From NCBI RefSeq assembly GCF_006345805.1, contig NC_043001.1, positions 107,570,001-107,634,000 of the forward strand: a stretch of DNA of 64,000 bases, written 5' to 3'. The notes beneath the pieces are model-generated. The model was not told the origin of the DNA, did not search any database, and saw nothing but the letters and a program-made list of their open reading frames with translations. Below are positions 2,087-54,989 of this stretch, one piece after another. Both the position numbers and the translations under genes were made by a program. The DNA is from Octopus sinensis. Taxonomy: Eukaryota. Every line of letters begins with the position of its first letter. Positions within the stretch are counted from its first letter, which is position 1.

Positions 2087-2795
2087 ATATACACAGATAC
2101 AAATCAATGCTCAGACTTTTGCTGAATTAGTTCGATTATTGATGGATGAATGGATGGCTTAATCGATATCTCAGCCTTATATATAAGTAATGAACTGGTG
2201 TGAAGAGCAATCAATACCATGGTTTTGTTTATTAATTGTTTCCCAACATAAAAAGGGTTAATTTTGCCTAGGTAACACTTCATTACTTAACTCTTAATGA
2301 AGTAACAGGTGAAACAAACAAAAACAAAATGTCTGTCTAATCTCACTCTGCTTCCCAGTTCACCCAGCATTCGTAGCCATAAATTCTACAATTTCCTTTG
2401 CAGATCGTGATTTACACTGTCAGCTCACGTAATCTCTCTCCTTGTAAAATAACTCCTATCAATCTTACTAGCGCTGTAGCAGGAATTAAGCAAATGCTGT
2501 TATGTTGAGATCCGCAAATGCTCCGGTCAGGCGTTTATTGACGCAGCTCCGTTAAGTAGTTGACGTGAAGATGTAATAATGTTTTACAGGTAGTTCATTA
2601 GTATCAGTGATCTTCCTACTTGATGAAGCAACAGAATTTAGATTGGAACTTAAAATTATAAAGAAAGAAAGTAGCAAACTATCAAAGCCAGATAAATAAA
2701 GTGTAGCAATTCAAGCAACCTGAGCTAATTTAATTATTTAGAATATTAAAGAATTTAAGTTCATTGCAAAACAAAACACATCGAATATTAATTTC

Positions 2796-3588
2796 TACTC
2801 TAGACACAAGGCCCGAAATTTGGGGGAAGGGAGGCAGTCGATTTGAACGACCCCAGTATGCAACTGGTACTTAATTTATCGACCTTGAAATGATGAAAGG
2901 AAAAGTCGCCCTCAGCGGAATTTGAACTCAGAACGTAAAGACATACGAAATACTGCTAAGCATTTCGCTCGGCGTGCTAACGTTTCTTATTTCCTTATTG
3001 CCCACAAGGGGCTAAACGCAGAGGGGACAAGCAAGGACAGACAAACGGATTAAGTCGATTACATCGACCCCAATGCGTAACTGGTACTTATTTAATCGAC
3101 CCCGAAATGATGAAAGGCAAAGTCGACCTCGGCGGAATTTGAACTCAGAATGTAACGGCAAACGAAATACCTATTTCTTTACTGCCCACAAGGGGCTATA
3201 CACAGAGGGGACAAACAAGGAAAGACAAACGGATTAAGTCGATTACATCGACCCCAGTGCGTAACTGCTACTTCTTTAATTGACCCCAAAAGGATGAAAG
3301 GCAAACTCGACCTCGGCGAAATTTGAACTCAGAACGTAACGACAGACGAAATACCTATTTCTTTATTACCCACAAGGGGCTAAACACAGAGGGGACAAAC
3401 AAGGACAGACATAGGTATTAAGTCGATTACATCGACCCCAGTGCGTAACTGGTACTTAATTTATCGACCCCGAAAGGATGAAAGGCAAAGTCGACCTCGG
3501 CGGAATTTGAACTCACAACGTAACGACAGACGAAATACCGCTAAGCATTTCGTCTGGCGTGCAAACGTTTCTGCCAGCTCGCCGCCCT
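2796..3588 (-). mobile_element. Head-to-tail array of four family A SINE units (three A2-tail, one A1-tail)
   Basis: Units at 2796-2987, 2988-3171, 3172-3355 and 3356-3588; whole block flanked by a ~20-bp direct repeat ACACATC(G/A)AATATTAATTTC (2776-2795, 3593-3612). Confidence 0.9.
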
Positions 3589-4039
3589 TAACACACATCA
3601 AATATTAATTTCGATATAGTATTATGCCTTTATTTTTTTATTGTTTCAGTCACAAGACAGCGGCCAAGCTGGAGCACCACCCTGAACGATTTTAGTCGAA
3701 TGAATTGACCCCAGTATCCTCTGTTGCATGCAATTTGAATTTTCTGTTATGTATTTAATATAACATTTGTGCTTAGTGGTGTTGTTTTCTGTCTGTTGCG
3801 TATATTTGCAAGTCCTGGTGTTTATCAACGGTGGAGTCATGTAAAAGGGCAGATATTGCAAAAATTTCAAACTAAATTATGAAGAAAAACTGGATGTGAA
3901 TGTATAAAATATTTTTCTATTTCTGCAGTAAGGGAACAAACCAAAAATTCTGTGTAAGCGAAGTTTCCTTCCCAAACATATATTTTGCTTTTTTTGTCAA
4001 CAGAAACAATGGCAGCATTGAGTTTTGGATTCACCATTA

Positions 4040-4560: not shown

Positions 4561-6039
4561 ACCTGTCCCACAGTACTTTAAGATTGAGTATTTCAATATT
4601 CATAAACTATAAGTTTCTTGGCACAACCGCTTACTTAGCGACCACAGGTAACTATATATCCGATATAATTTAGTTGTGGAGAAGATTCCCATCTAGGACC
4701 CACTTGTTTTTCCCATAGCTTGGATTTATGAGGCAGTTGTGTTGTTAAGAAAAGACAGAGCTATCAAGATGAAACTAATCATTTAAAACTCTGGTGGCAG
4801 GTCGGTTATCATGAACAGGAATAGCAGTCTATGCTGTGTATTGAAACTGGTGACGGTCCATGCTTCAATGGCGGGAGGGCGATCATATGTCGTAAGTATG
4901 GACTCACATAGACCTGCTAAATAAGTAACAAGGAGAGATATCACCGTTGTTTGTGCCTTTAGTGTTCAAACTAGTTGGGTTACTCAGGCTAATAGGTCAG
5001 GTATTATGGTAAAAGAAATTTGCATAAGCGCAGAAATGACCGTGTGGTAAGAACCTTGCTTCCCAACTACATGGTTTCGGATTCAGTCCCACTGCATGGA
5101 ACCTTGTGCAGGTGTCTTCTACCATAGCCTCGGGCCGGCAAAAGAATTTGATAAGCTCAGAAAATATAGACATTTACTAATCGAAATCGAAAAGGTAGGA
5201 GCTAATCAATCACATTGATGTAGTTTTCGGCTGGTACTTACTTTATTGACCCCGAAAATATGAAGGGCAAAATCGATTGATTTAAAGCACTGAGTACTGA
5301 CCTTAGTCACTACTTCAAGCCATGACAAGCATTCCTAACACAAATCCTAATTTCAGCTAGACATCATGGTATGGGAAACTGTCCAGAATTTACAATTGCA
5401 GTCGTATAATCTGTGAAATTGTTATTTAAACTTGACACCTTAAAGTAATTGGCAAAGAAAGTGTAATTTACTTTGGCGAGAATAAAAAGCAATATGCTGG
5501 CCGGAAAGGATGTGACATGCTGTTTTGGTGGGTATATCATAAACCTCAGGTAGACAAGCTGCTTATGAAAAGAACACCAGGAGTCTGTCTACAAAATATT
5601 GAAAGAACTTGTATATAAATAGAATATTTAATATATTCTCATCCAGATTTTCTTCATAAATTAATTTGCAATTGTTTCAATATCTTCTGTTATATCATAT
5701 CCGTCATCAAATTATTTTCTGTTGAGAATATTACCAAATAACTTATTACTCAGGCAAGTGCATTTAGCATTTAGAAGAATGGTTTGTATTAATTTCTTAC
5801 TTCGATATATCTACATATTTTTTCTTTGGCTAATGCAAACACACCCACACAAACGCATATGCAAGCATTCACGCGACTGTACACACACGACTACTCACAC
5901 AAGCACGCGCAAACATACACGCACGCAGAACTCTTTTTACTCTCACCCTTACGTTCTCTTCTAAGAAAACACACATACAGCATGCATATACAAAGGCGAA
6001 GATCAGTCCTGGGACAGACTCAGAGTAAAACTTGAACAG

Positions 6040-13480: not shown

Positions 13481-16368
13481 ATATGCGTGTATGTGTCATG
13501 CATATATATATTATATATGCTGTCGGGCACCGCTACTGATATTGGGGGTCGCTTTCTCTGCCTTGACCCGAGCATGGAAGGGGGCTCGCCTCTTTGAGCG
13601 GGTAAATGAATGGAATGCCTGGTGTGAGTCTTGTTTTGACTACACCCTCCAAAAACATGGTGAATAGGCCCGGGTATTCACCATTTAAATTTTTCGAAAA
13701 TTTTCTCAAAAAAATTTTCGCCAATTTTACACAAAAATTTTTCGAAAATGTACACCGAAACTTTTCCCCCAAAATTTTTCGAAAATTTTCACCAAAAGTT
13801 TTAAGAAAATTTTCACCGAAAATTTTACCTAGAAATTTTTCAAATATTTTCCCCAAAAATTTTTCGAAAATTTACACTAACAATTTTACCCACAAATTTT
13901 TCGAAAATTTTCACGGAAAATTTTACCCAAAAATTTTTCGAAAATGTACACGGAAAATTATACCCAAAAATTTTTAGAAAATTTTCACCAAAAATTTTAC
14001 GAAAATTTTCAACGAAAATTTTACCCAGAAATTTTTCAAAAATTTTCACCAAAAATTTTTCGAAACTTTTCACCGAAAATCTTACCCAAAAATTTTCACC
14101 AACAATTTTTCGAAAATTTTACTCAAAAAGTTTTCGAAAATTTTCACCGAAAATTTGCCCCAAACATTTTTCGAAAATTTTCAACGGAAATTTTCCCCAA
14201 AAAATTTTTCTAAAATTTTCACCAAAAAATTTTCCTAAAATTTTCACCAAAAAATTTTCGAAAATTATACCCAAAAATTTTCACCAACAATTTTTCTAAA
14301 AATTTTCCCCAGAAATTTTCACCGAAAATTTTCACCCAAAATTTTCCTAAAAATATGCGTGTATATGTTATGCATATATATTATATAGGCTATCGGGCCC
14401 CGCTGTTGATATTGAGGGCCGCTTTCTCTGCCTTGACCCGAGCATGGAAGGGGGCTCGCCTCGTTGAACTGGGAAATGAATGGAATGCCTGGTGTGAGTC
14501 TTGTTGTGGCTACCCCCTCCTAAAACATGGTGAATAGGACTGGGTATTAAAATTTTTCGAAAATTTTCCCCAAAAATTTTCCGAAAATTTTCACCAACAA
14601 TTTTTCGAAAATTTTCACTGAAAATTTTACCCAAAAATTTTTCGAAAATTTTTATCGAGAATTTTAACCAAAATTTTTCGAAAATATTAACCAAAAATTT
14701 TTCGAAAATTTGAACCAAAAATGTTTCGAAAGTTTTCTCCAAAAATTTTTCGAAAATGTACACCGAAAATTTTGCCTAAAAATTTTTCGAAAATTTTCAC
14801 CAAAAATTTTACGAAAATTTTCACCCAAAATTTTACCCAGAAATTTTTCAAAAATTTTCACCAAAAATTTTTCGAAACTTTTCACCGAAAATTTTACCCA
14901 AAAATTTTCACCAACAATTTTTCGAAAATTTTACCCAGAAATTTTCACCGAAAATTTTACCCAAAAATTTTTCGAAAATTTTCATCGAGAATTTGATCCA
15001 AAAATTTTTCGAAAATTTTAACCAAAAATTTTTCGAAAATTTTAACCAAAAATGTTTCGAAAATTTTCACCGAAAATTTTTTCCAAAAATTTTTCGAAAA
15101 TGTACACCGAAAATTTTACCTAAAACTTTTTCAAAAATTTTCACCAAAAATTTTACCAAAATTTTCACCGAAAATTTTACCCAGAAATTTTTCGAAAATT
15201 TTCACCGAAAATTTTCCCCAAAAATTTTCACCAACAATCTTTCTAAAAATTTTACCCAGAAATTTTCACCGAAAATTTTCCCCAAGAATTTTTCGAAAAT
15301 TTTCGCCCAAAATTTTCCAAAAATATACGTGTGTGTGTCATGCATATATATTATATATGCTATCGGGCCCCGCTGTGGATATTGAGGGCTGCTTTCTCTG
15401 CCTTGACCCGAGCATGGAATGGGACTCGCCTCTTTGAGCTGGGAAATGAATGGAATGCCTGGTGTGAGTCTTGTTGTGGCTACCCCCTCCTAAAACATGG
15501 TGAATAGGCCTGGGTATTCATCATTTAAATTTTTCAAAAATTTTCCCCAAAAACTTTTCGAAAATTCTCACCAACAATTTTTCGTAAATTTTCACCGAAA
15601 ATTTTCCCCAAAAATTTTTCGAAAATTTTCACCGAAAATTTTACCCAAAAATTTTTCGAAAATTTTCACCGAAAATTTTACCTAAAAATTTTTCGAAAAT
15701 TTTCACCAAAAATTTTACGAAAATTTTACCCAGAAATTTTTCGAAAATTTTCACTCAAAATTTTTCGAAACTTTTCACCGAATATTTTACCCAAAAATTT
15801 TCACCAACAATTTTTCGAAAATTTTACTCAAAAATTTTTGGAAAATTTTCACCGAAAATTTCCTCCAAAAATTTTTCGAAAATTTTACCCAAAAATTTTC
15901 ACCAACAATTTTTCTAAAAATTTTACCCAGAAATTTTCACCGAAAATTTTCACCAACAATTTTTCTAAAAATTTTACCCAGAAATTTTCACCGAAAATTT
16001 TCCCCGGGAATTTTTCGAAAATTTTCACCCAAAATTTTCCCCAGAAATTTTTCGAAAATTTTCACCGAAAATTTTACCTAAAAATTTTTCGAAAATTTTC
16101 ACCCAAAATTTTACCCAGAAATTTTTCAAAAATTTTCACCAAAAATTTTTCGAAACTTTTCACCGAATATTTTACCCAAAAATTTTCACCAACAATTTTT
16201 CGAAAATTTCCCACAAAAAGTTTCCGAAAATTTTACCAAAAAATGTTCACGAACAATTTTTCTAAAAATTTTCCCCAGAAATTTTTTCCAAGAATTTTTC
16301 GAAAATTTCACCCCAAATTTTCCTATAAATATGCGTGTATGTGTCATGCATATATATTATATATGCTA
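13481..16368. repeat. Composite macrosatellite: three units (~872, ~970, ~1006 bp) plus a 40-bp partial; each unit is a conserved ~200-bp box plus a palindromic AAAATTTTTCGAAAATTTTCACC-type array
   Basis: Unit starts at 13481, 14353, 15323 and 16329; box contains CTTTCTCTGCCTTGACCCGAGCATGGAA..AATGAATGGAATGCCTGGTGTGAGTCTTGTT..AAAACATGGTGAATAGG in all three units. Confidence 0.95.
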
Positions 16369-18078
16369 ACGGAGGAATTTGAAAACGTTGCTGGCAAAAA
16401 TGCAGATGTTGAAAATATTTATAAAAAGACAAATATATCCGCGTTCATGTTTATAAATGGAGACATTAACAATGCAAGATAAACAAACGACAGTTATGTA
16501 AACGAATACATCTTTAAACACAGACTAGTATTAAAGATGTTTAGAATATTGGAAATAACGAGCACAACTTTGCTAGTGTTAGCAGTTGGGATCAGATATT
16601 TAAATTCGGACCAGTTCTCCGGAATCAACAGAGAGAATGGATAAAGATGGGATCGTTCTCATTAGTTGATGATTTTATGGAAGAAAAGTTAAAGAAGAAA
16701 ATAGCATATTAGACATACTTTTGTCTCTCGAACAAGGATATCAGTGTGTGCCTGACCTTCAGACTGAATAAAGAAGCAGAACAGAAGTTTCAATAACCTT
16801 CCCATTAGTGAAGACTTGGCAAGTAGGACTATCGGCTGCTAGATGCACACTTCCCGCGCACACACATATGAAATGAAAGTCCTCGAACTTAAATCGAAAT
16901 CGGTTGATATTTCATGGGAAGTTTCGGAGATTACCGCTTTCTAAGTGAGCATTGGAGAAAAATTAAGTTTTAATGATCTAATGAACTAGCTTTCTTCGTC
17001 TGCACCGATATGTAAATATACAATTGTATAGCATAATGCGTAGCATTCACATTGGGACAGACATGTGAACGTATTTTTTATACACTGGAATTATTATTAA
17101 ATTATGAAGGCTGCGAAACGGCCGTAGTCTTAAGGAAGTTAAGGTATATGTTTGTGTGTTCATAGTATGTGTGTATTTGTGTGTGTGTGTGTGTGTGTGT
17201 GTGTAGAAAGCGGATGGCTTATAAGTTACGGTTGTGTGTTTCCGACAATATGTTCGATGGTTCCATTACTGGTCTGCTTATCGCGTTGTTTCCTTCAATA
17301 AAACACTTTCTTTCGCGATGTTTCAATATTGTGGGGGGAATCTGAAAACCAGCTTTATATTGGTGCAGTTTTCGATTTCCTTGGTACACAACGATCGAAG
17401 AAAATCAATACCCAGGAAAGAAAAAAAGTGTAAAGGAATTGAATGCGAAATTATGTATGTAACACATTGTGGAGACCTTCGTTGTGGGAAGTGTAAAATT
17501 GAAATAAGTAAGTAAGGAACACCGAAAAGATGTCTGTATATACATGTGTGTGTACACGTGCGTGTAGAGGTTCTAAAATTAGCTAAAAATATTTTTAAAA
17601 ATTGTTTAAAGACAAACTTGCGAAGTATACGTGGGGTGAGAATAAAGTGGAGGCCAAAATATAAAAACGATAGAATTAGGAAAGTAAAATTCACAACAGA
17701 CTACTCAATAGCAAGCGTAGAATCAAAGTCGTTTGGTGTCAGCTATACAATTGCGGGTGCATTATTTTATTGAATAAATTGGCGCTCGTAAATAACATAT
17801 ATAACAATAACTTAATTACAATTTTTATGCAGTAAATATAATATTTACAAAAGCCAAAAGAAGACAATCATAAATAATAGAGAGTAAATGAAAAATATTC
17901 AAAACAATATTAAAAATAACATGCATTTTACCCATTTATAAATTAGTATTCATAATATTTTATAGAAACAACCATTTAAAATATCTTCTCTGTTAATGAA
18001 CTTGTAAGCCAATGAATGAATTTCTCGTCATAAATAGGATTAACAATTTCCTATGTAATCCTGGAAATTGTAAATACC

Positions 18079-18309
18079 TATTTTTTTATTACCCACAAGG
18101 GGCTAAACATAGAGGGGACAAACAACGACAGACATAGGTATTAAGTCGATTACATCGACCCCAGTGCGTAACTGGTACTTAATTTATCGACCCCGAAAGG
18201 ATGAAAGGTAAAGTCGACCTCGGCGGAATTTGAATTCACAACGTAACGGCAGACGAATACGGCTACGCATTTCGCCCGGCGCGCTAACGTTTCTGCCAGC
18301 TCGCCGCCT
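18079..18309 (-). mobile_element. Full-length solo family A SINE (A2 tail)
   Basis: Complete head to tail; TSD TTGTAAATACC (18068-18078) / TTGTAAAATACC (18311-18322). Confidence 0.92.
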
Positions 18310-19067
18310 TTTGTAAAATACCGATGTTCTGTTAGATGTTGAGGACATTGCAGTATTAGATTGTGTAGGCGGTTAACTATGCACTTACAAGACGGAGCCG
18401 TTGCTACGCATTACATCAAAACACAAAAATTCTGTGATTTGTTGATATTATTTTACTGTATCCTGTGAAGCATCAAGAGGGGGGAGGTGGAGGAGGAGGA
18501 CGACGACGAGAAGAAGATGATGATGAGAAGATATTTAATTAGAGCATATGTTAACCTCGTGAAGGGGTGATTGCATCCAAGGAAATACTGGTTCAATACC
18601 TAGTATTTTGGAGAAATGAAATTCCCTTAAAACAAAAGGCATATATTAAGCATATAGTTTATATCCAGTTAAATGAAGAAAAGAAAATGGAGATAAGGAA
18701 GTTAATAATTGTTTATCATTAACGAATTAGTCACATTTGCTTCTTACAACCGTTTCAACTAATACTCAATGATTTAATTACAAATTTGTACGTTAAATTT
18801 ATATTTATATGACATGAGTATAAATTTAGCAAAGAAAAAAACAAAGATGTTATATGCAGGCCTATTAATTCATTTTAGCAGACTAAATGTTATGCATACA
18901 TGCAAGCATGTATGCATGTATGTATGTATGTATGTATTATGTATGTATGTATTATGTATGAATTATGTATTTATTATGTATGTGTTATGTATGTATGTAT
19001 GTATGTATGTATTATGTATGTATGTATGTATGTATTTATGTATGCATGTATGTATGAATGTAAACTG

Positions 19068-24299: not shown

Positions 24300-25100
24300 A
24301 TACTAGTACAAATTTTGGCACAATTCTAATATTTTCGAGGTACTTGGATAGTCGATTACATCGCCTCTCGTACTTATTTTACCGCCCCCGAAAAGACGAA
24401 AGGTAAAGTTGCTCCTAGAAGAATTTGAACACAGAACGTGAACAGGGACGAAATGCTGCTAAGCATTTTATCCCAGTGTATTAACCATTCTGCCAGTTTC
24501 CCGCCATATTAAAGTTATAATATTATGTCTTCGTAAAAATTAGTAGAATCGCCGCTGTATTAAAAAACTCACTGCTTTCATGCAGAGGGAAAACAAATCG
24601 TTAAACTAAAACCCGGAAGTGACAAATGTATTATCAATTTCTCTACTCGTGGGATGCGTGAAATTTTAATGGTTCCTGATTTGGGCTCAAGGCCAACAAA
24701 TTTCAGAGGAAAGTTTTAATCTATGCTATGAAACCTTGTACTTCACTGGTACTTTATCTTATTGGCCCAGAAAAGGTGAAAGGCAAAATTTGTTCTTATG
24801 GAATTTGAACTCAGAACATAAAGTGCCAAAATAAGGGTTCGCCAAATATTAATAAAAGATAAGAAATTATGTATTTTGGAGGTGCAAAGTCGGAAGAAAA
24901 TAATAAAAAAAGCAATTCGAAAACTATAAAATCAAGAAAATGTGAGAAGTGTAAATATTTACACAGAATTATAATGAAATATTTTTTCCTACTCTAGGCA
25001 CAAGGCCCGAAATTTTTGGAGAAGGGGCCAGTCGATTAGATCGACCCCAGTACGCAACTGGTGCTTTATTTACCGCCCAGAAAGGATGAAAGGCAAAGTC
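24300..25100 (-). mobile_element. Cluster of three degenerate or partial family A SINEs (~24300-24505, ~24680-24830, ~24983-25100)
   Basis: GAATTTGAAC(T/A)CAGAAC and GAAAGG(T/C)AAA core motifs; A1 tail CTACTCTAGGCACAAGGCCCGAAATTTT. Confidence 0.75.
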
Positions 25101-26016
25101 TTTTTAAGCTACGAATGAAGACTATTTATCTGCCAATGGTGTGTTGAGCACTGACTTTCACCGAAATAGACTGGCTATTCACTTTTCTGTGACTGGCTAA
25201 GTGATGTAGACATCTCTCATGTAAAACCGATAAGGTTTGAAAATCGTTTGAGACTCTTCATTTTACAGTCCCTGCCTTGGGTTCTTGCATACAAAATCCA
25301 TCCATCCATCCATCCATATATACATACATTGATACATATTGGCATGCATGCGAGCATACATACATACGTACAAAGATATATATATATATATATATAAATA
25401 TATGTATGCATGTATACATACGTACAAACACACATATGTGTATATCCATATATGTGTGTGTGTGCGTGTATGTGTCTGTATGCATGGATACTCATTCATA
25501 AAAGGGAATATAGAAACACCTATGTATGTGTGTGAGTGTGTGTGTGTGTGTGAGTTTGTGTGTGTGAGTGTGTGCGTGCGTGTGCGATAGTGTGTGTAGG
25601 AGTAGAAAAATAAAGAGACAAAAAGAAAAGCGATATAAAGTGACTAAATTTATTAAGTCTTAATCTGTTCTCTAATCCGTCTCATTTCCCAATACTATTC
25701 GATATTATTATATAATTTTGTAAAAATTTTCGTTCCCGTTGAGCTTATTTTCGCTTCATTTTCTTATTAACTTCTGCACCTTCAAGATGCATAGTGTGGG
25801 AAGTTACACAAAATTACCCACAGCATAGAACAACCTACAGTTGAAAACGCGTGGTTAACATATTTCTCACTCCTCCGTTACGCTGCTCATTTCCCACATT
25901 AACTACGCAACTGCTTGATTTGTTAAGCATGTAATGTTCATTCGCTTGAAGCCAATTTTTATTTTTTCCTATAACTTTGACTATGTTTTTCTCACCAATT
26001 TTTTCGACGCCATATT

Positions 26017-26052
26017 TTTACACAATCCAGTTTTATATATATACATTTCTCA

Positions 26053-26091
<39 letters not shown>

Positions 26092-26115
26092 GTATATATA
26101 TAAAACTGGATTGTG

Positions 26116-26119
<4 letters not shown>
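26017..26119. repeat. Perfect 32-bp inverted repeat around a (TA)n tract
   Basis: TTTACACAATCCAGTTTTATATATATACATTT (26017-26048) and its exact reverse complement (26088-26119). Confidence 0.93.
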
Positions 26120-26163
<44 letters not shown>

Positions 26164-28045
26164 TATATATATATATATATATACATATATATGTATATAT
26201 ATATATATATGTACAAATATATATATATATGTATGTATTGATTGATAGATAGATATATATCTTTGCACTTTTTCTCTTCTTTTAGTTTTTAACACGAAAC
26301 GCGTCATATATTTTCAATAGCAATGCAATAATAATAATAATAATAATAGTAGCAAGAAGAAAAACAACAACAACACCGGCAACAACAAATAAAAGCAAAT
26401 AACGGCAAACATATTTTATTTCACTCTACACTTTCATACGTACATCCATTCATCTTATTTTTTTCTTTCTAAATCATTTATGTACCGACAATTCGTTTTC
26501 AAGTTTTAGGTTCGGTGTTTTGTGTTTCAATCATAGATATTACTACATATTCAGATAGCTGTTTATGAAAATCTACGTAAAATAAAATCATTAATATATA
26601 CGATGCTATTCACAACATTTCGCTCGCTGGAAACAAAAGGTTTTTCAGAAATTATTATATATGAAATTCACTCGAGCATTAAATTTGATATGCGCTTACA
26701 CAAAAGACAATTGTTGACACATATATTGTCTACAATTAAAGACATTTGGAGACCAATACATGCACATACCTGATTCTCTTTCTTTCTCTGCTGCTCTCGC
26801 TGTCCCTTTATTTCCCACTTTCCCCTGTCTTCCTTCTTTTCTCTTCTTCTCTATACATAGATACATACGTGACTACACACACACACACACACACACACGC
26901 CTCTGTGTATGTGTGTGTGCGAGTGTGTGTGTGTGCGTGCGAGTGTGTGTGTGTGTGTGTTTTGGGTGTGTACTGTAAGCGAGCACTGTTTGATAACATA
27001 ATTTGCAGCTCGTCCTTAGTGCAAACTGCGTCTCCATCCCTTGCAGAGTCACCTCGCCATCGTCCATATTTATCTAGACATAAGCTTGCTGCTGGTTAGA
27101 TTATGAAAATATCCCGCTGCAGACATTAGTGAAGATAAGACTCAGTTTGAAAAACGATGCACCGTTCTACAGTGTCTACAGTGATCCTTATGTAAATCTT
27201 GCTTGTACTAAGAGTTTCAACTACGCATCTAAATAAATCGTGGGTCTGAGCGAAACGTTTAACAGCCATTGGGAATTCTATGGGACCGCTGCAGTTACAG
27301 CCCTGCAGTGGGGAATCATATTCTTAAGTACCGATATCATCCCGTTAGTGGGGAAATTGGTTTCTTAATACAACACTGGGTAGCAGATCCTACTCCATTC
27401 AAGGCGATGTCGTTTCCTGTACAACTTACCAAGGAAGGCTTAAAGTGTCCTTTCACCATTTCATAATAGGAATGAGACACGGTTATTTAGCGCTGGGACG
27501 ACGTTCGCTTCTTCTGCCTCCCTTGAGTGGCACCTGGCAGTATCATAATATCTAACTTTATCTACCTATTCGTCTGTTTGTCTGCCTATCTGCCTGTCAC
27601 TCACTCTCTCTCTTTTTCTTTCTCTCTCTCTCTCCCCCTCTCTCTCTCCCCTTCTCTCTCTCTCTCTCTCGATATATATATATATGATAATTTTCCTATT
27701 TATTCACATATTGTAATTCCAATTTATTCATTATTGTAATTCCAATTAGGTTATGGCCATGAAATGTGCGTAGTGGTTTTACTGATTATCTTATATTAAA
27801 CTTTTTAATACTTTTTGATAGTTATATATATTTTTTTTAAAATTAATAAATATAAATTAATAATTTTAAATTTAAATAATTTAAATTTTAAATTTTATAT
27901 GTTATATATTTTGTAAATTATATAATTATTTTTATTTTTATGTTTTGGTTTATGTTTTTCACTGTTTGATTTGCCTAATAGTGGTTTTATCTCTAATTTA
28001 ATTTATATATACATATATATATATATATATATAATATATATATAT

Positions 28046-28077
<32 letters not shown>

Positions 28078-29261
28078 ATATATATATAATATATATATAT
28101 ACCGTGCATAAATTTATTCCTAGACGAATGCAAATGCAGATAGCTTCAAGAAGCTGGAGCTAAACTTTTAAGTTGACTGCCTAATTAAATTTTTACTTAT
28201 GAACTATATTTCAAATAAGGATTTAAATAGACAGATAGGTTCACATACACACGCACACATCGACACACACAAATTCACGCGCTCACACAAAGACAAACAC
28301 ATATGTACCCATGCATGCACGCGCATACACACAAGCAGACATACGCATACACATATTTATCTATTTACTTAGTGAGGCTACATGTTAGTTTAGCAGATGT
28401 ACGCTAATACTATTTGTAAATATATGTATTCTCAAGGACGTGGCTGCAAAATGCGGAAGATCTGGCTTATAATTAATTGATTATATATCTTCACTTAACA
28501 ATACGTCTCAAACTGAATCAAGGAACAAACCTCTACGTAGATACTCTATTTGCTAAACTACCCTATTGAACAGGCGAGAAGCACAAAGAAGTCGTATATA
28601 CTCCAGACCATAGAAAATGTGATGCAATCATAGCTAGATAGCCTTTTATCATAGTCTTCGATAACTTCAAGATACACGCAGAAAACTACAGTGGCCCATC
28701 TGTTGCCAATTTCCATTCTATCGTTAAATCTTCAACAAATATTTTCGTGCCAGACGCCTGTGACAGTCTGGGTTAAAAGAGAAAAAATATGATGGTCATT
28801 TATCACTAATGTTAACGTACTATAATTTACCAATTGCTTGCAGATCATTATTCTATATCTATTATAGAATATTATCCTCTATGAGTTTTTTTTCCAACAA
28901 TTTTTGCACGTTATATTATGGTGATCTCTAAGAAATATTTCCACCGACAGCGAGAATGTAATTTAAGAGTCTATGACAGCGTGGATGTACACGTCCAAAT
29001 ATTCTAAATTCTTGTAATCCATTAATGTCATTTATCACATAATCTTTACAGTATTGAATATGATGGAGAGAAAATGTTATTTGATTATCTCTTACACTTG
29101 TTGATAGTAAATTTGTTGCTGGCAATTTCTAAATCTATTCATAACCGACAAAATATTTGTTTGATATATATGATAGTCAGATATATACTGGAACATCAAC
29201 ATATCACAATCTTGATACATCTCGAAGAATAAATCGTGCTTTAAGATTAATGATGAGTTAT

Positions 29262-29530
29262 GCGCGTGATTTGGTGGTAAGGGATTTTAGACTCGCAGTC
29301 CTAAGGTTGAGAGTTCGATTCGTGACTGCACATCTTGTCCTTGGGCAAGATATTTTATTTCACGTTGCTTTAGTCCAGCTGGCAAAAATGAACTGTTACA
29401 TTCTGTGTCACCCCCTAAAGCTCCTTGAGAATTATATTAAGGGTGCGCTTGGTTTCGGAATAATTAGTTCCTTCCCCGTTAATCTCACGAACAGGCTCTT
29501 CCGGAACCTTTGTCGTCGTAAGCTACGGAC
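29262..29530 (+). mobile_element. Degenerate family C-related SINE with an alternative middle body
   Basis: tRNA-like head with GACTCGCAGTC..GAGTTCGATTC, then GTCCTTGGGCAAGA; 3' part GTTAATCTCACGAACAGGCT..GGAACCTTTGTCGTCGTAA matches the tail of 1371-1759. Confidence 0.7.
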
Positions 29531-30811
29531 TAACCGTTTTTGCCATATGTGAATCGATTTAAATCTAACATACAAATAATACACAGCCTAATCGCATCTA
29601 GTTTTCCGTTGCTTGTTGTGTAATATGTAATATTTTGTTTATGTGATACAGATTAAGATACAGTGTAACTTATTTTCTATAGATTCCGTTTGTATTTTTA
29701 TAATTTTCTGTGTGATAGTAGCGTCTCTGCTAATATTTTCACCTGAAATCGCTGCTTGTTGTAATTAATGTAATTGAGTCATGTTTCACTGTAAAAATGC
29801 GAGACCTTATTCTGATGGGTATTACGCTCATCAGTGAGAAAATACTGGATGGCTTAAAAAGAAAACTCACGAAAGAAACAAGTTAAACCGATGTGTCGGA
29901 AAGGAGTCTCTGAGCCTCCCAATTTTCGCATGCAATTATTATCATAGTTTTTCCTGCGCTGTTAAACAAAGGACAAGACTACTGACTGCTGCTACCGTCA
30001 TTAGCCATCATTAGCCGAAGATAAATTATGATAACCCTGAGTTATTCACTACGTCACATTAAGAAATGGCTGTTAAGTGATGAGGCTTATTATAATTGTA
30101 AGGCAATTGTTAAAATGAGTCTAAGTAATAAATATATTGCTATTTTAGATAAGGATAAAAATGCTCAGAGTTAATATCTGATTACAAAACATTTAGAGAG
30201 TAAATAGATCAATACGTGTGCTTACTGTAACTTTACGACTAACCCTACAGGAATACACAGTGATGCCGCCATATTTTATTCAGCTGCATTATTGCAAGAA
30301 GACAGTTGCTGTCAACGTCCGCTATATTGGCAAAATCATAATATTTCCTGTCAAATTACTTGGCAAACTTAATTTCCTTTATAAAAGCAATAATTGATTA
30401 TATAGCTATAGCATATCATCTTACTCCATTTTCTTCGTGTGTTTCTTGACTGTGTAAGAAAAACAACGCCATTTTTTTACCAATCAAATCTGCGTCAGTG
30501 ACTAGTAAATGTAACACCAACTTTAATTGAAACTATATTTCTATACGTGCACTAGATGTCATGAATACATGCTTAAAACAATTTATTTCACACTGAAATT
30601 AGTATTTCAAGTGACATTTATTTGAGATTCTGGAACGATTATCCGGCTTGTGTATTTCGTCAAATACCAAATTTTTTCAAAAACATAAACCATTAGAAAC
30701 AAGCGGACAACAAACTGTTCAACCGTAAAGTAGATTACAACTTCGTAATAACAATGATTTCTGGGAATATAATCTCAGTTAACTGTTACTAAGGGGACTG
30801 CATATATATAT

Positions 30812-34358: not shown

Positions 34359-34820
34359 GGCGGTGATCTGGCAGAATCGTTAGCACGCCGGGTGAAATGT
34401 TTAGAGGTATTTCGTCCGTGTCTACGTTCTGAGTTCAAATTCCGACGAGGTTGACTTTGCCGTTCATCCTTTCGAGGTCGATTAAATAAGTACCAATTAA
34501 GCACTAGAGTCGATGTAATCGACTCAATCCCTTTGTCTGTCCTTGTTTATCCCGTCTATGTTTAGCACTCTGTGGGCAATAAAGAAATAAATAATGTAAC
34601 ACTAGAAAGGCGGCCATCTGGCAGAAACGTTAGCACACCGGGCGAAATGCTTAGAGGTATTTCGTCCGTGTCTACGTTCTGAGATGAATTTCCGCCTAGA
34701 TCGACTTTGCTGTTCATCCTTTCGGAATCGATTAAATAAGTACTAGTTACGCACTGTGGTCGATGTAATCGACTTAAACCCTTTTTCCAAGTTGCTCTTG
34801 TGGATGAAATTTGAAATGAT
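34359..34820 (+). mobile_element. Two adjacent family A SINEs (first with A2 tail, second with degenerate A1-like tail)
   Basis: Heads at 34359 and 34609; both share the variant AGAGGTATTTCGTCCGTGTCTACG. Confidence 0.88.
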
Positions 34821-38400: not shown

Positions 38401-38403
<3 letters not shown>

Positions 38404-41400
38404 AAACAAGTAACTCTTTTTTACTGACATACCTGGAAAATATGAAGGCCGACCTAAGCCAGGAGATCCAGCGAGCCATCACCAACCATCTATGCAAATC
38501 ACAAGGACCACTCACAACCAAACAAGTAACTCTTTTTTACTGACCTACCTGGAAAATATGAAGGCCGACCTAAGCCAGGAGATCCAGCGAGCCATCACCA
38601 ACCATCTATGCAAATCACAAGGACCACTCACCCATTACCAACTTCCCTTACCTCGACATTCCTGTTAAATGTACGTGGCATCAACCCATCAATTATAGCC
38701 CAAAAATGGAAGATCCCATATATAGAGTGTTGGCTTGCCGAAATGGCACATTGCTTCCCTTTCTTTATCCTTACCGAGACTCACCTGAACAACACCCATA
38801 TGGACGCAGAGGTGAAAATAAAAGATTTCACCATTGTTCGTGCGGATCGCACAGACCGAAATAAGGGAGGGACAGCCATCTTTATCCATGACTCCTTTTC
38901 ACTTGATGCCAAGGACACATTTTCCAATGGCTACTGTGAATCGGTATCACTATACAACAAAGCCAAGGACATAACCATTGTTGGTCTTTACAGGCCTCCC
39001 CAGGCACCTCTAAAGTACTTTGAAAAGTGCCTTAGCAAAGTCAAGTCCTTCCTTCGGAAGTACCACTCCGGAAACATACTAGTGATGGGTGATTTTAACC
39101 TCCCTCATGTGAACTGGCCCACAAATACTCCGAAGTTAGGCAAGTGCTCTACATCAGATAGGGCAGCAGCAGAACTGCTCTTTAATCTGATGGATGAGTA
39201 TTTCCTGACTCAGCTAGTGCTTCAACCAACGAGACAGAATAAAACGATCTTGGATCTGGTATTGACCAATCACTCTAGCTACGTTCACAGCATTTTAGTC
39301 GAAAAAACTCTCCTCTCAGACCACGACATGATACTCTGCAATCTTAATTCCCGACATATAAAAACCAAACCAGCCAATCCCACTCCATTTGACAACATAA
39401 ACTTCCACAAAGCGTACTGGGGAACAATCAGAAAGGATCTGTCTTCCATCGACTGGTCTTTTACTTTCAATTCCCCTCATATTGAGACCGCGTGGCAGCA
39501 CTTTGAAACCATTGTCACCTATACATGCTCTAAACACGCTCCCAAGAAATCTACTAACACAAACAGAAACCGGCTCCCTAAAAAGAAAATAAACACTCAT
39601 CAGGCGCATCAAAAGACTCAACAAAAAAATCAACCAATTAAAATATTCCCACACACAACATCTACATTCAACAACAATGAAAAGACTAGAGCTGGAAAAA
39701 CTTCATCTGCAGACTAACATGAAAACCTCCATTGAAAATCAAAGAGCTGTGGAGGAACAATGGGTAATCAAAAACATCAAACAGAACCCAAAAGTGTTCT
39801 ATTCTTATGCAAATTAGCATAGAACCACTGTCTCACCCATTGAGCCATTGATTGATGATAACGGCATTCCCCAACACGATGCTAAAGAAATGGCAGAAAT
39901 ACTGCAGAAACAATACTGCTCTGTCTTCAGTGTTCCCACTGATATTGATGTGAGTGAAACGAACGAAGTTGACTCCCAACACAAAATCGCAGACATAACC
40001 TTCACTGCCACCGACATCGTAGCAGCAATAAATGAGGTCAAACATTACTCTGCTGTAGGCCCTGATAGATTTCCCGCTAGTCTCCTGAAGGAATGTAGAT
40101 ATCAACTTGCAGTCCCTCTGACCAACCTCTGGAGAAACTCGTTAGACGCAGGTTATATACCGAAACAGTTTCTATCCCAGTCGGTCATCCCGGTTTTCAA
40201 ACAGGGAAACAGATCCCTCGCAGTCAACTATCGCCCAATCTCACTCACCTCCCACATCATTAAAGTGTTTGAAAGAGTGTTAAGATCAAGGATAGCTGAC
40301 TTCCTGGAGACCCACAAACTCCTAAATTCAAATCAACATGGCTTTCGCTGTGGCAGGGACTGTCTAACACAGCTCTTACACCACATTGAAGATGTACTCA
40401 AAGCCTTGGGAACAGGTTCGAACTCTGACGTCATATATCTTGACTTCAGTAAAGCGTTCGACAGGGTAGACCATAACATCCTACTCTCAAAATTGGCAAA
40501 TGTTGGAATCCGTGGAAAAGTTCTACGCTGGATTCAGTATTTCCTGCCGAATAGAACACAACATGTTGTAGTTGATGGAGTCCACTCAAACCCAGCAAAA
40601 GTCACCAGCGGTGTTCCCTAGTGAACTGTTTTGGGTCCGCTACTCTTCATAATTTACGTAAACGACCTTTCCAGTGTCGTACATCACTGCAAAGTGAAAA
40701 TATTCGCTGATGACACTAAGCTCCAGCAAATCGTCAATGAAGAAGCAGACCGAACTCAACTCCAGTCTGATCTATATGCTGTGAGTCAATGGGCAGGCAG
40801 AAACAAAATGCAACTGAATGAGGGAAAATTTGAGCTGATGCATTTTGGAAGAAATTCCTCACTAAAACAACCATACTGTCTTCCTTCAGGGGAACCGCTC
40901 ACAGCCTCTAACAATATCAGAGACCTGGGTGTAATTGTTGATGACGATCTCAGTTGGAGTGCACACATCAACAAGAAGGTCGATATAGCTCGTAGGATGA
41001 GTTCCTGGATCTTAAGAACTTTCCGGTCCAGAGAACAAGGTGTCATCATACCACTTTTTTCCTCCTTTGTACGGCCACACCTTGAATACTGCTGCCCACT
41101 GTGGTCTCCTCACACAAGACAAAACATCTCCAGAATTGAGTCACCCCAGAGGGCTCTCACTAAACAAATTGAAGGCATGGCTGCTCTCGATTATTGGGAT
41201 CGCCTTAAAGCCTTGAAACTTTACTCCCTCCAGCGTCGCCGTGAGCGGTACATCATTTGTACGATGTGGAGAATATACCGCCAACTTTGCCCAAACGACC
41301 TAAACATTAGCTTCAAGGTTCATCCAAGACTTGGACCACGGCTATACGTCCCCTGCCAAATTCAAGATCACAACATACATGTACACTGCAACATAATTTC

Positions 41401-54612: not shown

Positions 54613-54892
54613 TCTACTCTAGGTACAAAGCCCGAAATTTTTGGGGAGGGAGCCTGTCGATTAGATCAACCCCAGTACGCAACTGATACTTAATTTATCC
54701 AACCCGAATGGATGAAAGGGCTTAGTCGGCGGAATTTGAACTCAGAACGGAAAGACAGACGAAATACCTATTTCTTTACTACCCACAAGGGGCTAAACAC
54801 AGAGAGGACAAACAAGGACAGACAAACGGATTAAGCCGATTATATCGACCCCGTGGGTAACTGGTACTTATTTAGTCGACTCCGAAAGGATG
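54613..54892 (-). mobile_element. Family A SINE dimer: 5'-truncated A2 joined to A1 at GGTATTTCGTC
   Basis: Junction GACGAAATACC|TATTTCTTTAC at 54768/54769, the same site as in the 2796-3588 array. Confidence 0.88.
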
Positions 54893-54989
54893 TAAATTAC
54901 CCTTACAAAGCGGAAAGATTTGTCAACAACCACCCATGGGACTCGAATCCATATCTCTTGAAGACTCCGGCCAAGTGCTTTGCCATTAA

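Follow-up and report, generated by a model that had tools for sequence, protein, structure and literature searches.

Fixed-site insertion of an octopus SINE into its own family, with target words linked to SINE lineage

A2, by its sequence a tRNA-like SINE of Octopus sinensis, inserts into fixed sites in the heads of copies of its own family, and this self-targeting is a real feature at genome scale. The nested copies are true insertions by target-primed reverse transcription. The words at which the insertions start differ between A2 sub-lineages. Our main reading, to which we give a probability of about 0.6, is that the sub-lineage words and the two fixed head sites arise from pairing of a read-through RNA with the target: the first 4–5 downstream bases of the RNA would pair with the nicked primer, and the daughter copy would inherit the word. 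The starting point was a window of 64,000 nucleotides (contig NC_043001.1, positions 107,570,001–107,634,000).

The exact A2 tail pattern has 88,011 matches in the 2.72-Gb genome, 43,762 forward and 44,249 reverse. GGTATTT directly follows 31,009 of them genome-wide, where the frequency of the word in the window predicts ~14 by chance, and GGTATTTYG, the family's own head site, follows 24,817. GGTA plus a base other than T (GGTAV) comes next at 4,686 exact tails (~95 expected from word frequency in the window), and AGAAWCRTT, a second head site, at 2,208. The element is ~232 bp long, non-coding and dispersed on both strands. Like other SINEs it shows target duplications of variable length (10–27 bp, median 16, n = 76), a fixed 3' end, 5' truncated copies and an empty orthologous site. 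It ends at one fixed base, and the 13–20 bp duplication begins right there, with the word in both copies. In the head, a box A-like word matches the box A pattern and a box B-like word, with one extra T, misses the strict pattern; ARAGORN and Rfam gave no match. The family may be akin to the octopus OR1/OR2 CORE-SINEs.

All six A2 3' junctions that a sequence-only reading had located in the window were found in place. GGTATTT does come next at four of them (3172, 3356, 18079 and 54769), and three of these four are the head site of another family copy, as that reading had it. At junction 2988 the next bases are AGAAACGTTAGC, a second head site, and at junction 34589 they are AATAATG; both junctions have GGGC-type tails, in line with the lineage rule described below. 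Junction 3172, a GGGC tail at a GGTATTT site, is a minority case. Full heads directly after the A+T-rich tail of another family copy occur at window 34589–34609 and at five other loci (L001, L090, L192, L205 and L250), a tail-to-head clustering distinct from the fixed head sites.

The array in the window, described earlier as having one outer duplication of ~20 bp and mixed A1 and A2 tails, indeed has a head followed by three A2 units of 184 bp each and an A1-tailed unit at the end, all inside a single outer 20-bp duplication with 1 mismatch (Table 1). Its units differ among themselves at 15–17 of 184 bases. Unit 1 differs from the unlinked copies L204 and L215 at 1/184 positions, from unit 2 at 16 and from unit 3 at 15; judged by such distances, the array is not a local duplication. 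A contig of organism E (run X12) extends through the flank and enters the array's A1 tail (window 2300–2821, 41 differences; flank ~8% diverged), and the outer A1 host must therefore be older than the split from organism E. Short-read contigs of relatives break at the array.

Table 1 Features of the array and of other A2 copies in the window
Feature	Position	Strand	Basis or remark
5' copy of the outer 20-bp duplication	3593..3612	-	
tRNA-like head, with a box A-like word at 3568-3576 and the second self-site AGAAACG at head offset 15	3540..3589	-	
GGTATTT self-target site at head offset 48, between the box A-like word and the box B-like word (3502-3514)	3533..3539	-	
Unit 1, youngest A2 unit, AATACCTAT / GGGTAAT lineage	3356..3539	-	
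AATACCTAT, 5' arm of the predicted 9-bp stem formed with the junction	3411..3419	-	fold
Small tail stem-loop with CTTGT loop, 13 nt before the element end	3369..3380	-	sequence
ATAGGTATT, last 3 bases of unit 1 and first 6 of the downstream target; predicted 3' stem arm	3350..3358	-	fold
Unit 2, A2, starting at head offset 48, GGGCAGT tail	3172..3355	-	
Unit 3, A2 with GGGCAAT tail; junction with the host at head offset 15	2988..3171	-	
Unit 4, older A1-tailed host copy from offset 15	2796..2987	-	3' end also in organism E
3' copy of the outer duplication; overlaps the end of the A1 tail	2776..2795	-	
Solo full-length A2, AATACCTAT lineage	18079..18310	-	absent from the orthologous site of organism E
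5' duplication copy of the 18079 solo, begins GGTATTT	18311..18322	-	
3' duplication copy of the 18079 solo, begins GGTATTT	18068..18078	-	
Older A2, GGGCAAT tail, followed by an A-start flank and then a full head at ~34609	34359..34589	+	
5'-truncated A2 with GGGTAGT tail; junction with an A1 host (54615-54768) at offset 48	54769..54895	-	

Junctions were classified in a sample that combined contig C1's first 100 exact tails with nine loci selected for being arrays and with most of the listed GGGTAAT and GGGC tail matches. It yielded 373 distinct tails with 300-base flanks, leaving out tails too near a locus end and loci with a head–duplication–head structure. The sample covers the window and, on a single contig, the first 22 Mb; its copies were chosen by exact tail match, and it favours young copies and over-represents two lineages. 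Among the unselected first 100 tails, 37 were nested at GGTATTT (one a misclassed solo), 3 were nested at AGAAACG and 60 were solo. This solo share, a solo word that fades after 4–5 bases, three words and three self-sites distinguish A2 from strict target specificity of the R1, R2 or Tx1 type. The 174 nested tails joined their hosts at head offset 48 in 143 cases, at offset 42 in 5, at 15–16 in 25 and elsewhere in 1; the offset-42 junctions are a 6-base tail stutter ahead of the same site as offset 48. An antisense site in the core, GGTAC, was hit by 4 of 199 'solo' tails.

The structure host head, duplication, new full head gave 62 matches, of which 21 distinct loci were inspected. Sixteen were an A2 flanked by matching GGTATTTCGTC-type copies inside an older host; 3 others were without an intact A2 tail and 2 did not match. 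The insert was less diverged than the host body at 16/16 loci (0.020 vs 0.130). Nested copies with internal duplications, a young insert in an older host, thus bear out the proposal that A2 lands at a fixed site in the head of its own family. At the 18079 solo, whose target duplication does begin with GGTATTT in both copies, a contig of organism E (run X12) joins window 18071 to 18316, and the empty site reads GGTATTTACAA. Contigs lead from the flank into this copy in runs X3 and X7, and on the other side in X3 and X8; the copy is missing in X12 only. Both the empty site and the left duplication copy contain GGTATT, which rules out that the word is part of the element itself. GGTATTT was present before the insertion, so the motif is a pre-existing target, as had been suggested.

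Local duplication accounts for a share of adjacent A2 pairs, about 30% or fewer. Two or more rare alleles were common to 23 of 117 adjacent A2–A2 pairs (130 of 19,872 random pairs in the null), and 35/117, in 15 loci, were closer to each other than to any unlinked copy; this share is inflated because nine loci were chosen for being arrays. Neighbours sharing private mutations, the pattern held in advance to count against insertion, are accordingly present in 23 to 35 of 117 pairs elsewhere and absent from the window's array. Could local tandem duplication or unequal crossover, seeded at chance microhomology as in SINE-derived satellites, be the main source of arrays? The pairs just named speak for such an origin; the most uniform arrays may be assembly artefacts. 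We nevertheless regard that origin as highly improbable, because the remaining 82 of 117 pairs are not duplicate-like, the units of the window's array are 15–17 bases apart, arrays contain target duplications in their interior, and the same words occur at solos in unique DNA, one of them with an empty site. As the main origin of arrays local duplication is refuted, and we keep it as a secondary process. Squamate SINE-derived satellites form head-to-tail arrays at many loci through unequal recombination and homogenisation, according to the accessible part of Vassetzky et al. 2023 (PMC10702118). Compared with what is described there, most A2 pairs are unrelated, of different ages and joined at fixed joints, with ~30% or fewer duplicates. 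Units that are each other's closest relatives, the mark of such satellites, were not found in the 82 pairs or in the window's array. Separately, a 65–67 bp tandem unit consisting of the SINE head and the start of the target duplication is repeated up to ~9 times at L093–L099, L109–L113 and C3430:1637–2212; these repeats could reflect repeated priming at the RNA's own internal site, or local amplification.

The sequence-only reading had the array regain its Pol III head from the host copy. In arrays with an old host (n = 33), head column 19 carries the A2 allele A in 23, compared with 3/29 solo A1/A3 copies (P = 2e-6). Array heads have a divergence of 0.054, solo A2 heads 0.060, solo A1 0.112 and solo A3 0.146. 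By both measures the head is donor-type in most arrays, and for these a host-derived head is rejected. C at offset 48 is present in 7/33 old-host arrays and points away from an origin in the host target, since a GG target cannot supply C. A remnant of the host head was seen in 3/81 arrays; a fourth match was spurious. The likely explanation is that a full-length cDNA pairs with the host's homologous head and takes its place.

Read-through dimers copied in a single step would leave a similar picture and probably contribute to a minority of arrays. As a general account, one-step copying, in which a new site receives a whole copy of the transcript read through from a nested source, or of a product of template jumps between family RNAs, seems to us distinctly unlikely. 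The donor-type heads and the rarity of host-head remnants fit it, and so do some perfect outer duplications (4 of 15 detected in A1-ended arrays and 9/21 in A2-ended arrays) and the correlated ages of A2–A2 neighbours (rho 0.29). With microsatellite flanks dropped, however, outer duplications are perfect in 51/81 solo A2 (P = 0.011 against the A1-ended arrays), so those of A1-ended arrays are older than solo A2's. Outer-duplication age showed no significant correlation with the divergence of either unit, a point against our main reading. Organism E, ~8% diverged in the flank, also has the outer A1 end of the window's array, and unit 1 is one base from unlinked copies. The 5' unit is the younger in 52 and the older in 28 of the 82 non-duplicate pairs (P = 0.008); the rare-allele count gives a weaker trend (younger in 41 vs 30 of 94, P = 0.059). 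In pairs with an A1 host (n = 34), the 5' unit is less diverged in 24 and more diverged in 7 (P = 0.0014), on an A2-based yardstick that may inflate A1. One-step copying also leaves the target words of solo copies unexplained.

These words are shorter and more varied than first thought. GGTATTT had been taken as a 7-base specificity, yet in the strictest lineage, marked by AATACCTAT, only 3 of 54 solos start with it; GG is the start of 45, GGTA of 36, GGTAT of 22 and GGTATT of 9. Instead of one target for all A2 there are three lineage-linked preferences, GGTAT, AG(A/T)A and TATA. Solos with GGGC tails (n = 81) start with GG in 4 cases, AG in 33 and TA in 25, and the GG start thus separates the two groups (45/54 vs 4/81, P = 5e-22); those with GGGTAGT tails (n = 47) split between GG (16) and TA (19). 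GG comes next in 72/84 copies of the AATACCTAT lineage. Nesting divides by tail as well, with offsets 48 and 15 used 140:7 by GGGT tails and 8:18 by GGGC tails (P = 4e-13). Counted by eye among 100 listed genome-wide matches each, tail plus GGTAV had GGGT in 97 and tail plus AGAAWCRTT had GGGC in 89.

Target class follows kinship. On a tree of 159 solo bodies with the last 25 bases removed, it changes 32 times, compared with a mean of 72.9 and a minimum of 64 in 300 shuffles, and the nearest unlinked solo is of the same target class in 101/161 cases vs 35% expected. By itself this pattern is evidence of inheritance of the target word, not of its cause. C at offset 48 goes with TA targets (19/33 vs 7/63). 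It is carried by 39/131 solo A2 heads, which have no GG self-target, and is possibly an escape allele or drift. Median nearest-copy distance is 0.025 in the AATACCTAT lineage, 0.054 in other GGGT copies and 0.065 in GGGC copies.

Pairing with the nicked target would work as follows. A putative partner LINE would supply a loosely specific nick, with a purine at −3 and, at −1, C favoured and G avoided. Reverse transcription would start at a fixed distance from the tail stem-loop (3369–3380 in unit 1), likely the signal for the LINE protein, and Pol III read-through would supply the pairing bases. Pol III usually terminates at a T run, and read-through is expected because most units (249/356) are without a run of four T. 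By inserting into a family head, one lineage would have acquired GGTATT as the word downstream of it, and every family head would then be a target. Annealing of the full-length cDNA to the host's homologous head would leave a head-to-tail array under the host's old outer duplication, and unequal crossover or slippage would later amplify some arrays.

The sequence-only reading had favoured targeting by an endonuclease. We prefer RNA–primer pairing to one endonuclease motif because the preference is lineage-specific and tracks the SINE tree. Each preferred word is a plausible RNA extension, being the tail's own repeat (AGAAA), the tail's final TA, or the head word. In the AATACCTAT lineage, three substitutions complete a 9-bp complement to ATAGGTATT, that is, to the junction and six downstream bases, and in predicted local folds of the tail domain the extension is paired in 31/32 AATACCTAT copies vs 2/79 others. 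Such a complement suggests that the source molecule likely carried GGTATT past its end. The 9-bp stem is absent from whole-unit folds, where other pairings win, and, if formed, the predicted stem would hide the very bases proposed for pairing. The 6-base tail stutter was found in 6 of 100 GGGC tails (listed matches, counted by eye) vs 23/97 (P = 5e-4); this depletion is in line with pairing, since the stutter needs G at +1 to re-pair. Head sites are used ~15-fold more than GGTAT alone would give (nested 27 vs solo 22, sites 8 vs 96; a rough, hand-computed figure). Pairing over 4–5 bp cannot by itself explain this excess, which needs longer pairing, better context or open chromatin.

The words could instead be set by LINE endonucleases, with several partner LINEs, or one that evolves, nicking at GGTA, AGAA and TATA, one per SINE lineage. 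This we consider unlikely, since the lineages have the same tail end and similar duplication lengths, and GG- and TA-targeting GGGT copies overlap in the age proxy (P = 0.18, n = 20 and 21). Moreover, all three words match sequence carried by the SINE RNA, and endonuclease choice predicts neither the AATACCTAT complement nor the lineage-specific stutter. It does draw support from the position of the word, which is in the target itself and begins exactly at the element end. A direct test of pairing showed no excess of RNA-templated bases at the junction, the extension being matched at 9 mismatched sites by the right copy and at 7 by the left (P = 0.80). A weak context outside the duplication is common to all lineages (n = 76; at −1 G in 4 and C in 28, at −3 a purine in 57), and the antisense GGTAC sites in the core are hit without long sense homology. 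Because lineages differ in age, as do AG- and TA-targeting GGGC copies (P = 0.013), successive enzymes could account for part of the pattern.

RNA–primer pairing leads to a wider proposal, which we hold tentatively and at somewhat less than even odds: target choice would be RNA-guided and heritable, with its information kept outside the element. Read-through would take in the first bases of the duplication, which would guide the next insertion and be regenerated by it, and a guide matching the lineage's own promoter region would create a self-renewing landing pad (~25,000–30,000 nested junctions). The hairpin sub-lineage would hold the guide, and the head allele of another sub-lineage would remove the self-target.

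In a search for the partner LINE, no tail in common with A2 was found in the RT loci inspected (8 of 30 loci and 20 chromosomal ones; 150 of 59,986 RT candidates scored). Among 21 A2-tail matches without the core, none looked like a LINE end by eye. An RTE-like family, whose clade we presume from its RT motif, has a 3' end different from that of A2 in the 4 copies inspected. An abundant LINE family (L312, L315, L319, L322–L324, L328) encodes an endonuclease and RT in a frame of up to ~950 aa (Pfam, one copy scanned) and ends in a small hairpin plus (ATT)n; ATT repeats likewise close the A1 and A3 SINE tails. Small unplaced contigs (L281–L310) carry the RT families with the highest scores, which differ from the two main families on the large contigs and have some copies near 100% identical; they are either a very young family or another organism's DNA. 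L314, which had looked as if its end were the A2 tail, was rejected as the partner, its RT fragment being unique in the genome and within a split A2 tail. This 1.5-kb RT-coding fragment (L314:2426–4118, contig C16 near 34,268,000) has ends without visible duplication and is either a nested insertion or a template-switch chimera pointing to the partner enzyme, a hint from a single case. Three A2 copies (L002, L023, L191) have an inverted 5' part resembling twin priming.

Self-insertion has precedents of other kinds. The Zepp LINE of Chlorella, autonomous and targeted by its enzyme, inserts into its own copies, and Alu makes tandem insertions into the A-rich tails of existing copies. A2 also lands in its own family, but at fixed sites inside the promoter region and by lineage. 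R1 and R2 have a fixed rDNA site chosen by their own enzyme, and read-through is said to lie behind the pairing of R1Bm. The octopus OR1/OR2 SINEs were reportedly described by Ohshima and Okada in 1994; they appear to resemble the A2 family in having a tRNA-like head, a common central body and interchangeable tails. They are named in the accessible text of PMC4824008, PMC4758252 and PMC5804259. None of the papers found reports self-targeting by OR1/OR2, and the available portion of PMC9115989 is silent on SINE targets.

Pairing of RNA 3'-end bases with target DNA to start reverse transcription is described for R1Bm, R2Ol and the I factor in the accessible sections of Nishiyama and Ohshima 2018 (PMC6007223). 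Those elements are autonomous, whereas A2 is non-autonomous, dispersed and loosely specific, with several lineage words. The same sections report that the 3' microsatellites of RTE-related elements correlate with the first duplicated base, propose RNA–target pairing, and cite the AfroSINE result of Gilbert et al. 2008 alongside RTE-related SINEs; the available part of PMC13295347 extends this signature of 3' repeat and target. Like A2, the RTE-related SINEs, as presented in those sections of PMC6007223, occur as near-identical types whose duplications start differently within a single genome, and pairing between the RNA's 3' end and the nicked target is the explanation offered. Their guide is, on that account, a microsatellite tail inside the element with an overlap of one or two bases; the GGTAT word of A2, in contrast, is non-repetitive, 4–5 bases long, outside the element end and equal to its own head site. 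The upstream T stretch of RTE elements is absent ~10 bases from A2 targets (T 0.31 at −15 to −8 vs 0.29 at −30 to −16, n = 76), and the median duplication is 16 bp vs the 7–15 bp quoted in the accessible text of PMC6007223. Literature searches gave no description of target words that are non-repetitive and inherited by lineage, or of self-insertion at fixed sites in this family, though subscription papers, Repbase and bioRxiv supplements may hold one. A2 thus works like known primer-pairing retrotransposition; what appears new is that the words are apparently inherited from the flank and feed back onto the element's own head.

Endonuclease choice and RNA–primer pairing are usually argued from one or two overlap bases; here there are words of 4–5 bases across lineages, and tens of thousands of near-identical elements open the question to a direct test, in which a few bases outside the element are changed. 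If pairing is right, target preference would be heritable without change in enzyme or element, copies of its own family could serve a SINE as harmless landing sites, and the RNAs of short retroposons may be retargetable in part. Repeated insertion is a route to SINE arrays, which repeat annotation and dating in this genome will misread as single-age tandem repeats.

The window also contains tandem repeats of other kinds: an A+T-rich repeat in three blocks with nested periods of 12, 24, 37 and 61 bp (13687–16321), and a tandem pair of 116-bp copies with a 99% match (38401–38631).
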